NCBI RefSeq assembly: GCF_013315695.1
Contig: NZ_CP054353.1
Length of the DNA: 64,000 bases
Strand: one strand, 5' to 3'
DNA from: Escherichia coli
GTDB taxonomy: Bacteria > Pseudomonadota > Gammaproteobacteria > Enterobacterales > Enterobacteriaceae
The notes under the pieces were generated by a model, which was given only the letters and a program-made list of their open reading frames with translations, had not been told where the DNA came from and did not search any database. Positions 48,944 through 57,860 of the stretch are shown piece after piece (position 1 is the stretch's first letter; each line of letters begins with the position of its first letter). The translations under genes were made by a program, and so were the position numbers.

Positions 48944-49162
48944 ATGCAGAAACGAGAACCCGTCATCATCGCGCCAGACTATACCGATGATGAACTTTAT
49001 GAGTGGATGCGCCAGAAAATTAATGCAGCGCAGGATCTGAAATGGGCTAATGAAGCCAGGGCTAAGCAGGCTGAAAATCTGTTCTCTCTGGAGCAGGATA
49101 TCACCAGGCTGGAAAAAGCAGCGGCATTAAGCATTGCCAGAATGATTACATACCCGCGTTAA
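48944..49162 (+). CDS. ydfC: small protein YdfC (72 aa)
   Basis: MQKREPVIIAPDYTDDELYEWMRQKINAAQDLKWANEARAKQ... Confidence 0.75.
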   Translation: MQKREPVIIAPDYTDDELYEWMRQKINAAQDLKWANEARAKQAENLFSLEQDITRLEKAAALSIARMITYPR

Positions 49163-49502
49163 TAGCTAACCAACGAAGCTAAGGTTGGTAATTAAGGAGT
49201 TCTCCACGGGTGAGGTGGAGTGCGTGCGCCGGACACGGGTGAGCATCCGGCACTGACAGTTTACTGAAAGGATATTTCCATGAAAAGTCAGACCATAACG
49301 CGAAAGCGCACGGCGAGGTAGCTGGTTCATAGATAGCCTGTCGTTAAATTTTCGTCGACCGTGCGCTTCCGGTTGTGGCAACCCGCGAAATGGCGCGGCG
49401 GTAAGTATGGCGGGGTTATTCCTTCCCCGTTGAGGACACCGGGTTGTCAGGTTGACCATACGCTTAAGTGACAACCCCGCTGCAACGCCCTCTGTTATCA
49501 AT

Positions 49503-50198: not shown

Positions 50199-51299
50199 AT
50201 GAGTAAAGTCTTTATTTGCGCCGCTATTCCTGACGAACTGGCAACAAGGGAAGAAGGCGCTGTGGCTGTAGCCACAGCCATTGAAGCTGGCGACGAACGC
50301 CGTGCTCGAGCAAAATTTCACTGGCAATTCCTGGAACATTATCCGGCTGCTCAGGACTGCGCTTATAAATTTATTGTCTGCGAGGATAAACCTGGCATAC
50401 CCCGCCCTGCCCTCGATTCATGGGATGCTGAATATATGCAGGAAAACCGCTGGGATGAGGAGTCTGCTTCTTTTGTCCCGGTTGAGACTGAATCCGATCC
50501 GATGAACGTCACTTTTGACAAGCTGGCCCCTGAAGTACAGAACGCTGTCATGGTTAAGTTCGACACATGTGAAAACATCACCGTTGATATGGTTATTAGC
50601 GCACAGGAATTGTTGCAGGAAGACATGGCAACATTCGACGGACATATCGTTGAAGCGTTGATGAAAATGCCAGAAGTTAACGCCATGTATCCGGAGCTTA
50701 AGCTGCATGCCATCGGGTGGGTTAAGCATAAATGTAAGCCTGGTGCCAAATGGCCCGAAATTCAGGCAGAGATGCGCATCTGGAAAAAACGTCGCGAAGG
50801 TGAACGTAAGGAAACCGGAAAATACACGTCTGTTATTGATCTCGCCCGCGCCAGAACCAATCAACAGCACAGTGAAAATTCAACAGGAAAAATCAGCCCG
50901 GTCATTGCTGCCATTCATCGCGAATACAAGCAGACATGGAAAACACTGGATGACGAACTGGCCTACGCTCTCTGGCCTGGTGATGTGGATGCCGGAAACA
51001 TTGACGGCAGCATCCATCGCTGGGCAAAAAATGAAGTTATCGACAACGACCGCGAAGACTGGAAGCGTATCTCGGCATCAATGCGCAAACAGCCTGATGC
51101 CCTTCGCTACGACCGCCAAACTATTTTTGGCCTTGTCCGTGAGCGTCCGATCGACATTCACAAAGATCCCGTAGCACTGAACAAATATATCTGCGAATAC
51201 CTGACGACAAAGGGCGTGTTTGAGAATGAAGAAACAGACCTGGGCACTGTTGATGTTCTCCAGTCATCAGAAACACAAACTGATGCAGTGGAAACTGAG
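50199..51299 (+). pseudogene. ydfE: YdfE-like protein, reading frame runs into IS2
   Basis: frame from MSKVFICAAIPDELATREEG... continues to ...TDAVETE, then the last 8 codons (YFQTSVIT) are IS2 sequence. Confidence 0.6.
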
Positions 51300-52202
51300 T
51301 ATTTCCAGACATCTGTTATCACTTAACCCATTACAAGCCCGCTGCCGCAGATATTCCCGTGGCGAGCGATAACCCAGCGCACTATGCGGATGCCATTCGT
51401 TATAATGCTCGAACGCCTCTGCAAGGTTCTTTGCTGCCGTTAACCCGTCTGGTTTGGGCATGATACTGATGTAGTCACGCTTTATCGTTTTCACGAAGCT
51501 CTCTGCTATTCCGTTACTCTCCGGACTCCGCACCGCCGTGTTCTTCGGTTCAAGTCCCAACATCCGGGCGAACTGGCGTGTTTCATTAGCCCGGTAGCAT
51601 GAACCATTATCCGTCAGCCACTCCACTGGAGACGACGGAAGATCGTTGCCGAAGCGGCGTTCCACCGCTCCCAGCATGACGTCCTGTACTGTTTCACTGT
51701 TGAAGCCGCCGGTAGTGACCGCCCAGTGCAGTGCCTCACGATCACTGCAGTCCAGCGCGAACGTGACACGCAGTCTCTCTCCGTTATCACAGCAGAACTC
51801 GAACCCGTCAGAGCACCATCGCTGATTGCTTTCTTTCACGGCCACTCTGCCTGTATGTGCCCGTTTCGATGGCGGTACAGCAGGTTTTCGCTCAAGCAAC
51901 AGCGCATTCTGGCGCATGATCCGGTAAACACGTTTGGCATTGATCGCAGGCATACCATCAAGTTCTGCCTGTCTGCGAAGCAGCGCCCATACCCGACGAT
52001 AACCATACGTGGGCAGCTCTCCGATAACATGGTGTATACGGAGAAGCACATCCGTATCATCAGTGTGACGACTGCGGCGGCCATCCATCCAGTCATCGGT
52101 TCGTCTGAGAATGACGTGCAACTGCGCACGCGACACCCGGAGACAACGGCTGACTAAGCTTACTCCCCATCCCCGGGCAATAAGGGCGCGTGCGCTATCC
52201 AC
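51267..52202 (-). CDS. insD: IS2 transposase InsD, C-terminus extended into flanking DNA
   Basis: ...[31 protein letters not shown] followed by 10 extra codons because the natural TAG lies in the missing terminal 14 bp. Confidence 0.8.
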
Positions 52203-52616
52203 TTTTTTGCCCGTCCATATTCAACGGCTTCTTTGAGGAGTTCATTTTCCATCGTTTTCTTGCCGAGCAGGCGCTGGAGTTCTTTAATCTGCTTCATGGC
52301 GGCAGCAAGTTCAGAGGCAGGAACAACCTGTTCTCCGGCGGCGACAGCAGTAAGACTTCCTTCCTGGTATTGCTTACGCCAGAGAAATAACTGGCTGGCT
52401 GCTACACCATGTTGCCGGGCAACGAGGGAGACCGTCATCCCCGGTTCAAAGCTCTGCTGAACAATTGCGATCTTTTCCTGTGTGGTACGCCGTCTGCGTT
52501 TCTCCGGTCCTAAGACATCAATCATCTGCTCTCCAATGACTAGTCTAAAAACTAGTATTAAGACTATCACTTAAATAAGTGATACTGGTTGTCTGGAGAT
52601 TCAGGGGGCCAGTCTA
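51300..52616. mobile_element. IS2, missing about 14 bp of its insD-proximal terminal repeat
   Basis: insC/insD on minus strand; intact end ...GGGGGCCAGTCTA at 52616; other end starts at TATTTCCAGACATCTG without the outer TGGATTTGCCCCTA. Confidence 0.8.
52160..52525 (-). CDS. insC: IS2 InsC
   Basis: 121 aa from [40 protein letters not shown]... Confidence 0.9.
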
Positions 52617-53991
52617 TGAGGTATCTGATATCCCAAAAAATGAAACCGCGCCGGAAGCTGAACCATCTGTAGAGCGTGAGGGGCCGTTCTATTTCCTCTT
52701 CGCAGATAAGGACGGAGAAAAATGCGGTCGCGCAAACAAACTTTCTGGTCTGGATAAGGCACTGGCTGCTGGCGCCACTGAAATCACAAAAGAAGAATAT
52801 TTTGCCCGAAAAAATGGCACATACACGGGCTTACCGCAAAATGTAGATACCGCTGAAGATTCAGAACAACCAGAGCCGATAAAAGTTACCGCTGACGAAG
52901 TAAACAAAATTATGCAGGCAGCCAATATCAGCCAGCCTGACGCCGATAAGTTGCTTGCTGCATCACGTGGTGAATTTGTTGAAGGGATTAGTGACCCGAA
53001 TGATCCGAAATGGGTTAAGGGGATCCAGACCCGCGATTCTGTGAACCAGAACCAGCATGAATCGGAACGGAACTACCAAAAAGCGGAACAAAACAGCCCA
53101 AATGCGTTACAAAACGAGCCAGAAACGAAACAGCCTGAACCAGTGGCGCAACAGGAAGTGGAAAAAGTCTGCACCGCCTGCGGTCAGACCGGCGGCGGCA
53201 ACTGCCCTGATTGTGGCGCGGTGATGGGCGACGCAACATACCAGGAAACATTCGATGAAGAGTATCAGGTTGAAGTTCAGGAAGATGATCCGGAGGAAAT
53301 GGAAGGCGCTGAACATCCACACAAGGAGAACACTGGCGGCAATCAGCATCACGATAGCGATAATGAAACTGGCGAGACGGCAGATCGCTCAATTAAGGTG
53401 AACGGTCATCACGAAATCACATCCACCAGCAGGACGTGTGACCATCTAATGATCGACCTTGAAACCATGGGAAAAAATCCTGATGCCCCGATCATCTCAA
53501 TAGGTGCAATATTTTTCGATCCGCAAACCGGAGATATGGGACCGGAATTTAGTAAGACTATCGATCTGGAAACTGCTGGCGGAGTCATTGATCGGGACAC
53601 CATTAAATGGTGGCTTAAGCAATCACGCGAAGCGCAATCTGCCATTATGACCGATGAAATCCCGTTAGATGATGCACTGTTACAATTGCGGGAATTTATC
53701 GACGAAAACTCCGGTGAATTTTTTGTTCAGGTTTGGGGAAATGGAGCCAACTTCGACAACACGATTTTGCGCCGTTCATACGAACGGCAGGGGATCCCCT
53801 GCCCGTGGCGTTACTACAACGATCGCGATGTACGCACAATCGTTGAGCTGGGGAAAGCCATAGACTTCGATGCCAGAACGGCTATTCCATTCGAAGGTGA
53901 GCGCCATAATGCACTTGATGACGCCCGTTACCAGGCAAAATACGTTTCAGTTATCTGGCAAAAACTGATCCCGAGTCAGGCTGATTCTTAA
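52617..53991 (+). pseudogene. 3' part of a phage gene encoding a DnaQ-like (DEDD) 3'-5' exonuclease domain; no own start
   Basis: frame open from the IS2 boundary; acidic/Gln-rich linker with CxxC...CxxC; C-terminal [10 protein letters not shown]...GANFDNTIL...HNALDDARY exonuclease motifs. Confidence 0.6.
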
Positions 53992-56849: not shown

Positions 56850-57860
56850 TTACCAGTTCCACAGCGTGCCATCTTCCAGACGTGCGACTGGCAGATAAGC
56901 AGGTTCATAGGGATATTTCGCCGCCAGCTTTTCATCGAATTCGATGCCAAGACCCGGTTTGTCTCCCGGATGCATATAGCCGTTATCAAAAGTCCAGTTG
57001 TGCGGGAAGACTTCAAGCATTTGTTCGGAATAACCCATGTATTCCTGGACACCGAAATTGGGGACCCACAGATCAAAGTGCAGCGCCGCAGCCATGCAGA
57101 CTGGCGACAAATCGGAAGGACCGTGTGAGCCAGTACGTACCTGATACAGCGAAGCAAAATCGGCAATCCGGCGCATACCGGTAATCCCCCCCGCGTGAGT
57201 CAGCGTGGTGCGGATATAGTCGATAAGTTGTTCTTCAATCAGCTGTTTGCAGTCCCAGATGCTGTTGAAGACTTCACCCACTGCAATTGGCGTGACGGTG
57301 TGTTGGCGAATCAGGCGGAAACACTCCTGGTTTTCCGCAGGCGTCGGGTCTTCCATCCAGAACATGCGATAATCTTCAATGCTTTTACCAAAGCGCGCCG
57401 CTTCAATAGGCGTTAAGCGATGGTGCATGTCATGCAGCAAATGTTCATTAAAACCAAACTTGTTACGTACCGCGTCAAACAATTTCGGCATGAAATCGAG
57501 GTATTTCTCCGTCGACCACAGCTGCTCTTCCGGCCACTGTCCTTTGGTTGCGGGTTCATAAGCCAGACCTTTACCTTTCGACATGCCATAGGTGGTTTTC
57601 ATACCAGGGATTCCGCACTGCACGCGGATGGCTTTGAATCCCAGCTCCTGATGACGGGCATAATCATCCAGAGCTTCATCAATACTGTGACCGGTGAGCT
57701 GCGGACAAAGGTGATCCTGCAAATAAGAGGCCACGGAAAGCTCACGTCCATTTAGGGTGGCATCCCCAAGGCCCGTAATACCGTCCTCAGTGGTGATTTT
57801 TAATGTGACGAAATTACGCCCCGGACAGGTAACAAAAACTTCAGCCTTTACGATCTTCAT
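56850..57860 (-). CDS. rspA: starvation-sensing protein RspA (enolase-superfamily dehydratase), apparently shortened by an internal in-frame deletion
   Basis: 336 aa from [17 protein letters not shown]...; N-terminal capping domain only about 55 aa before the barrel region (...LCPQL|[26 protein letters not shown]...). Confidence 0.8.

Follow-up and report, generated by a model that had tools for sequence, protein, structure and literature searches.

The IS2 copy and the gene that it interrupts

The window, a 64,000-nucleotide stretch of an Escherichia coli genome (NZ_CP054353.1), contains an IS2 copy of 1317 bp on the minus strand (51300..52616). The copy corresponds to IS2 positions 1–1317 of 1331 and lacks the 14 outermost bp of its right inverted repeat (IRR). 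As reference we used IS2A of K-12 MG1655, a RefSeq mobile element of 1331 bp with the terminus ...GGAAATATAGGGGCAAATCCA. A global alignment of the two elements left seven substitutions and a 14-bp terminal gap (IS2 positions 1318–1331), and DNA identity to IS2A was 99.5% over 1317 bp, a near-identity that assigns the copy to IS2. On the plus strand of the window, the bases missing from the IRR would read TGGATTTGCCCCTA. A previous sequence-only reading of this locus had claimed that about 14 bp were lacking from the insD-proximal (IRR) end and that the end at 52616 was complete. Alignment to the reference, the check that it had proposed, upheld both claims, since exactly 14 bp are absent and the reference terminus does not start at TATTTCC and carries TGGATTTGCCCCTA. 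Its range for the feature (51267–52616) calls for one refinement: position 51267 is the end of an extended open reading frame, and the IS2 boundary lies at 51300.

At the IRR side, the junction (51299|51300) reads ...GCAGTGGAAACTGAG|TATTTCCAGACATCTGTTATCACTTAACCC, and the element starts with TATTTCCAGACATCTGTTATCAC. At the side of the left inverted repeat (IRL), the junction (52616|52617) reads ...GGGGGCCAGTCTA|TGAGGTATCTG, with ...CAGGGGGCCAGTCTA as the longer left context. What is left of the IRR are the inner 27 bp of 41 (51300..51326, minus strand), which, with the limits given in PMC3299598, keep most of the protein-binding domain and lack the cleavage domain. A complete 41-bp IRR ending in CA-3', the donor end, is therefore not found in the window copy. 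The IRL, which is the recipient end, is complete at 42 bp (52575..52616, minus strand); it reads TAGACTGGCCCCC... on the minus strand, its terminus is the same as in K-12 IS2A, and it has a single substitution at IS2 position 32 that is also present in the copy of strain AF3 described below. This substitution is an A-to-G change (52585). At 52574..52575 (IS2 positions 42–43), TT replaces AA at the centre of a 20-bp palindrome (TATCACTTA-NN-TAAGTGATA) that spans the inner edge of the IRL, the change being an exact flip of the loop. Both the TT and the G at position 32 are common to all IS2 copies examined in this lineage. Judged by its sequence, the window copy is IS2 by descent and not an intact IS2.

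Both transposase genes lie on the minus strand and overlap at the frameshift window, the arrangement of orfA (HTH), orfB (DDE/rve) and A6G motif that marks IS2. The insC gene (orfA, 52160..52525) encodes 121 residues identical to K-12 InsC1, and the Pfam domain HTH_Tnp_1 is recorded on this gene in related contigs. The A6G window for programmed −1 frameshifting (AAAAAAG, 52202..52208), a motif named in PMC3299598, is intact. The insD gene (orfB, 51267..52202; Pfam HTH_21, rve, rve_3) is extended, encoding 311 residues compared with 301 in K-12 InsD1, and the two proteins differ only by C153S and a 10-residue tail. The final three bases of the missing block are the stop codon of insD and orfAB (TAG, or CTA as read on the plus strand). 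Because this stop lay in the lost bases, InsD runs 10 codons into the flank, where it meets a TGA (read-through region 51267..51299, stop 51267..51269, minus strand; ORF listing and sequence), and the tail is encoded antisense to the exonuclease fragment described below. The 311-residue frame agrees with the previous claim that the stop codon was in the missing stretch and that InsD had gained 10 codons. The modelled OrfAB fusion is an open frame of 419 residues, against the normal 409, and retains the complete DDE triad (D240, D306, and E342 in the numbering of PMC3219604).

Compared with K-12 IS2A, the window copy thus has an identical InsC, an InsD that is one residue off, the A6G window, the three catalytic residues and the 42-bp IRL, and its original 5-bp target duplication can be deduced from a sister allele. 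It differs from IS2A in that the outer 14 of the 41 bp of the IRR, the CA-3' terminus and the stop codon are gone, InsD and OrfAB are 10 residues longer, and the duplication is short by one base.

The gene interrupted by the element is a homologue of ydfE on the plus strand. Its 5' fragment (50199..51299; Pfam YdfE_N and YdfE_C) has a reading frame that runs 27 nt into IS2 to 51326, and its 3' fragment (52617..53991) encodes a Rv2179c-like 3'–5' exonuclease domain (Pfam). When the two fragments are joined minus one TGAG, a 2508-nt frame with a single terminal stop is obtained; it matches the 825-aa exonuclease of ATCC 8739, of which the 5' fragment represents the N-terminal part. Hundreds of genomes contain the uninterrupted gene, which reads ...GAAACTGAGGTATCTG... 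at this point. The prophage is cryptic and of the Qin type, with the gene order dicA-ydfABC-dicB-ydfD-exonuclease-xis-int, adjoining rspB; IS2 interrupts its large exonuclease gene.

K-12 itself has a defective and immobile IS2 remnant (IS2E, insD7) in the same Qin prophage exonuclease gene. We rejected the interpretation that ydfE::IS2E represents the same event, as the site, the orientation and the retained half all differ. The K-12 insertion is an independent event located about 235 nt upstream of the window site in the gene and in opposite orientation; what remains of it are IS2 positions 626–1331, including a complete IRR, the IRL half is lost, and a 3.5-kb deletion connects the remnant to intQ. 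More broadly, the dicB-ydfD-exonuclease-xis segment (about 3.5 kb) has received at least six independent IS2 or IS2-like insertions across the Qin-type prophages of different strains (extracts L003, 3345..4675; L016; L017; L018; and L004, 5844..6549). One of them lies only 43 bp from the window site (duplication GAACC), and all except the K-12 copy share one orientation. The segment may be a hot region for insertion, or its disruption may be favoured by selection.

A full-length sister allele and the origin of the clipped end

Of the 5,426 complete E. coli genomes that we searched, one, that of strain AF3 (NZ_OZ547117.1), has an IS2 of the same orientation at the position of the window copy. 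Over the 1317 shared bases, the two elements are the same at every position (1317/1317), including the seven differences from K-12 IS2A. The AF3 element has a full IRR, with junctions that read ...GAAACTGAGG|TGGATTTGCCCCTATATTTCC... and ...CCAGTCTA|TGAGGTATC, a perfect 5-bp target duplication TGAGG (...ACTGAGG|TGGATTTGCCCCTATATTTCC on the IRR side), and a transposase of normal length (WP_148718718.1). The window equals the AF3 sequence minus a single 15-bp block, GTGGATTTGCCCCTA, made up of 1 bp of the duplication and 14 bp of the IRR. Only one placement of this gap fits both sequences, and we found no direct repeats or microhomology at the deletion breakpoints when comparing the window with AF3. 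In agreement with this, the window has the complete TGAGG at the IRL side (52617..52621) and the remnant TGAG at the IRR side (51296..51299), where the final G is deleted, whereas the AF3 allele of the same insertion has a perfect 5-bp repeat. The earlier estimate of a loss of about 14 bp therefore holds for the IS2 part, while the lesion itself measures 15 bp with the duplication base included. In summary, the AF3 allele shares with the window the site, orientation, IS2 sequence and prophage context, and the strain shares further IS2 copies as well, one in ydeT and another at a third locus; the allele differs in keeping GTGGATTTGCCCCTA and, with it, the complete IRR, the perfect duplication and the normal-length transposase.

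The comparison of alleles shows the order of events. A full-length IS2 inserted into the ydfE-like exonuclease gene of a Qin-type cryptic prophage, duplicating TGAGG. In a descendant lineage, one 15-bp deletion (GTGGATTTGCCCCTA) then took a single duplicated base together with the 14 outermost bp of the IRR, a stretch that held the CA-3' terminus with the 11-bp cleavage domain, 3 bp of the binding domain and the TAG stop of insD/orfAB. The copy, deprived of its donor end, would be frozen in place, and InsD and OrfAB have gained their 10-residue tail. Still intact are orfA, the A6G window, the DDE triad and the IRL, and the copy still offers 1.3 kb of portable homology for recombination with other IS2 copies. 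A normal insertion followed by loss of the tip is very probably the best explanation of the clipped copy. The reverse order, from clipped to full, is not credible, as a copy without a donor end could not have inserted. Acquisition of the full AF3 end by gene conversion from another IS2 was also discarded, since it could not recreate the G on the flank side.

The flanks differ from those of AF3 and GCA_900448625.1 in clusters of SNPs, so recombination has played some part in the history of the lineage, which is no plain clonal succession. In three clusters (49083..49280, 50703..51032, and 52724..53389), the window differs while AF3 and GCA_900448625.1 agree; they resemble patches left in the prophage by recombination or gene conversion, and they lie to either side of the IS. 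IS2 and its junctions are the same in the window, AF3 (the clipped IRR aside) and GCA_900448625.1.

The identical clipped junction is present in MSB1_4I, a finished chromosome whose copy also equals the window copy over the whole 1317 bp that they share. With the exact 311-aa protein as a guide, we found the same junction in GCA_900448625.1, GCA_964049465.1, GCA_902849715.1 and three metagenome contigs. In all, the clipped end was found in eight assemblies besides the window, or seven when a close relative of MSB1_4I is set aside. The 40 bp that adjoin the clipped end on its flank side are the same throughout, and among the nine occurrences in public data, counting the window, none has the clipped end in a second flank. 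The exact junction had no match in the collection of species-representative genomes. A scan of that collection for the inner IRR returned only two short contigs, both full-ended. These carry the exact IS2 IRR and come from assemblies of Sulfoacidibacillus thermotolerans (contig L014, 394 bp) and Lamprocystis purpurea (scaffold L015, 1543 bp); most likely they represent E. coli contamination of the assemblies.

Copies of insertion sequences are classic trouble spots for assemblers, and a sequencing or assembly artefact at the repeat boundary could in theory mimic a clipped end. The junction is identical in independent assemblies from different projects (two finished chromosomes, a 5.2-Mb contig, a draft contig and three metagenome assemblies), which refutes this explanation and leaves it a negligible probability; as a sequence difference, the clipped end is deterministic and does not rest on statistics. 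That TATTTCCAGAC is a genuine alternative or reference terminus of IS2, or that an already clipped IS2 inserted with a 4-bp duplication, is suggested by the TGAG found on both sides of the element, and we nevertheless consider it very unlikely and refuted in practice. K-12 IS2A, at 1331 bp, ends with TGGATTTGCCCCTA, and the same full end is found in four other IS2 copies, among them those of AF3 and GmM062 and the ydeT copy of MSB1_4I, and in the two stray contigs. Furthermore, an element without the donor cleavage domain cannot form the circle needed for insertion, and the flank-side G of AF3 would again be beyond the reach of gene conversion. It might also be supposed that a larger deletion removed prophage DNA on the ydfE side, as the sequence-only reading had proposed and as the IS2-associated deletion in the same gene of K-12 could lead one to expect. 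The flank equals AF3 and the intact genes base for base up to ...ACTGAG, and the two fragments rejoin in frame to a full-length exonuclease gene, which refutes this proposal and makes it scarcely probable. When the junction was compared with related strains, as that reading had recommended, AF3 and the uninterrupted genes showed that the flank is intact save for one duplicated G.

As for the cause of the 15-bp deletion, it could be the scar of an abortive IS2 copy-out by which the donor end disabled itself. By this route, the transposase would nick the 3' end of the IRR, and either the regenerated donor strand would be mis-joined to the flank or the nick would be processed. The deletion spans the exact donor cleavage position, from 1 bp outside to 14 bp inside, the IRR is the only end cleaved in step I (PMC3299598), and the lack of microhomology argues against simple replication slippage. 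Against this stand the facts that we are dealing with a single event, noticed precisely for its place at an end, and that a 204-bp deletion in rspA is likewise free of microhomology and unrelated to any IS end. The rspA deletion shows that such losses arise in this strain without a transposase, and altogether we regard an abortive copy-out as a rather unlikely cause. The rspA gene (minus strand, about 56850..57860) lacks 204 bp (68 codons, in frame) at 57696/57697, with breakpoints devoid of microhomology; the site is 6.4 kb away from the 15-bp scar and 5.1 kb past the IRL end. These 204 bp are present in AF3 and in every complete E. coli genome among the top matches listed, and the deletion may be private to this strain. 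Excision of the IEE type was dismissed as a source of the clipped end, as its published products are the loss of a whole IS or deletion of flanking DNA, often with microhomology, and not the loss of an IS tip.

Loss of the donor end and the extended transposase

In the formation of IS2 circles, the IRR serves as the exclusive donor end, and the IRL is without donor function (PMC3299598). The outer 11 bp of the 41-bp IRR constitute the cleavage domain, and random mutation of this outer element abolishes minicircles (PMC3299598). The deletion takes the whole 11-bp cleavage domain with the CA-3' terminus and, in addition, 3 bp of the binding domain. Because the lost bases hold the entire cleavage domain of the only donor end, the copy would be unable to start transposition and is predicted, from this published biochemistry, to be immobile. 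The sequence-only reading had also expected a truncated end to make the copy immobile; the loss of the cleavage domain and the occurrence of the clipped end always in one flank point the same way. No mobilised derivative of the clipped copy was seen among the clipped-end occurrences in public data.

By chance, TGGA, the native terminal tetranucleotide of IS2, occurs at 51289..51292, 11 bp outside the new boundary compared with the native 14 bp. In principle it could act as a surrogate terminus, which would count against immobility. We did not retain this possibility: with the tetranucleotide as terminus, the distance to the binding domain would be 3 bp too short, the bases in between do not resemble the native domain, and of the 14 positions that are replaced only 2 agree with it.

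The protein is a separate matter. Fusion of GFP to the C-terminus of OrfAB gave native-level activity in vivo, and residues 399–409 of OrfAB are predicted to be disordered (PMC3219604). Taking these published properties as a guide, the tailed transposase is probably made and functional.

Recombination with other IS2 copies

Four different sequences abut the IRL of the clipped copy in the assemblies found: TGAGG, which is the original flank, CATTT, which belongs to ydeT, TAAAC, and CACT. In MSB1_4I, ydeT adjoins the IRL side, and the reciprocal junction is found at a distance of 89 kb. There, the order is ydeT-N'...CATTT|full IRR-IS2-IRL|TGAGG-exonuclease-C', with the target duplications swapped between the two copies. 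The partners are the clipped Qin copy (extract L002, 3301..4617) and a full IS2 within ydeT, a fimbrial usher gene (extract L007, 1770..3100; also L009). AF3 has both the Qin and the ydeT copies in uninverted form. Because AF3 keeps the ydeT IS2 unrearranged, the comparison shows that an 89-kb segment of MSB1_4I was inverted when two IS2 copies of opposite orientation underwent homologous recombination. Replicative intramolecular transposition was rejected as the source of the inversion, since the IRR is clipped in the first copy and full in the second, and since the ydeT IS2 of AF3 is uninverted.

The TAAAC sequence (TAAACATCGG...) also flanks the IRL of a third IS2 copy, which is present in both AF3 and MSB1_4I. 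Its junction with the clipped copy was found in extract L010 (from 2641 onward, TAAACATCGG...), part of a 12.5-kb draft contig; the CACT junction was found in extract L011 (from 1903 onward, CACT...), part of a metagenome contig. These two flanks could be either more rearrangements between IS2 copies or chimeric short-read assemblies across the repeat.

In sum, the clipped copy is a known insertion sequence that has undergone ordinary decay, and public genomes already contain and annotate it. It accounts for an oddly long IS2 transposase annotation in such genomes, as in MSB1_4I, where the RefSeq coding sequence already contains the 10-codon-longer transposase. Within one E. coli clade, it provides a lineage marker, from the full allele to the clipped allele and on to the inversion derivatives. 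Were the deletion indeed caused by the transposase, it would be of modest interest for the copy-out-paste-in mechanism, and such scars would be enriched at donor ends across genomes. Of little weight beyond bookkeeping, the clipped copy shows how an IS copy becomes fixed in place and how homologous recombination lets even an immobile IS copy rearrange the genome.
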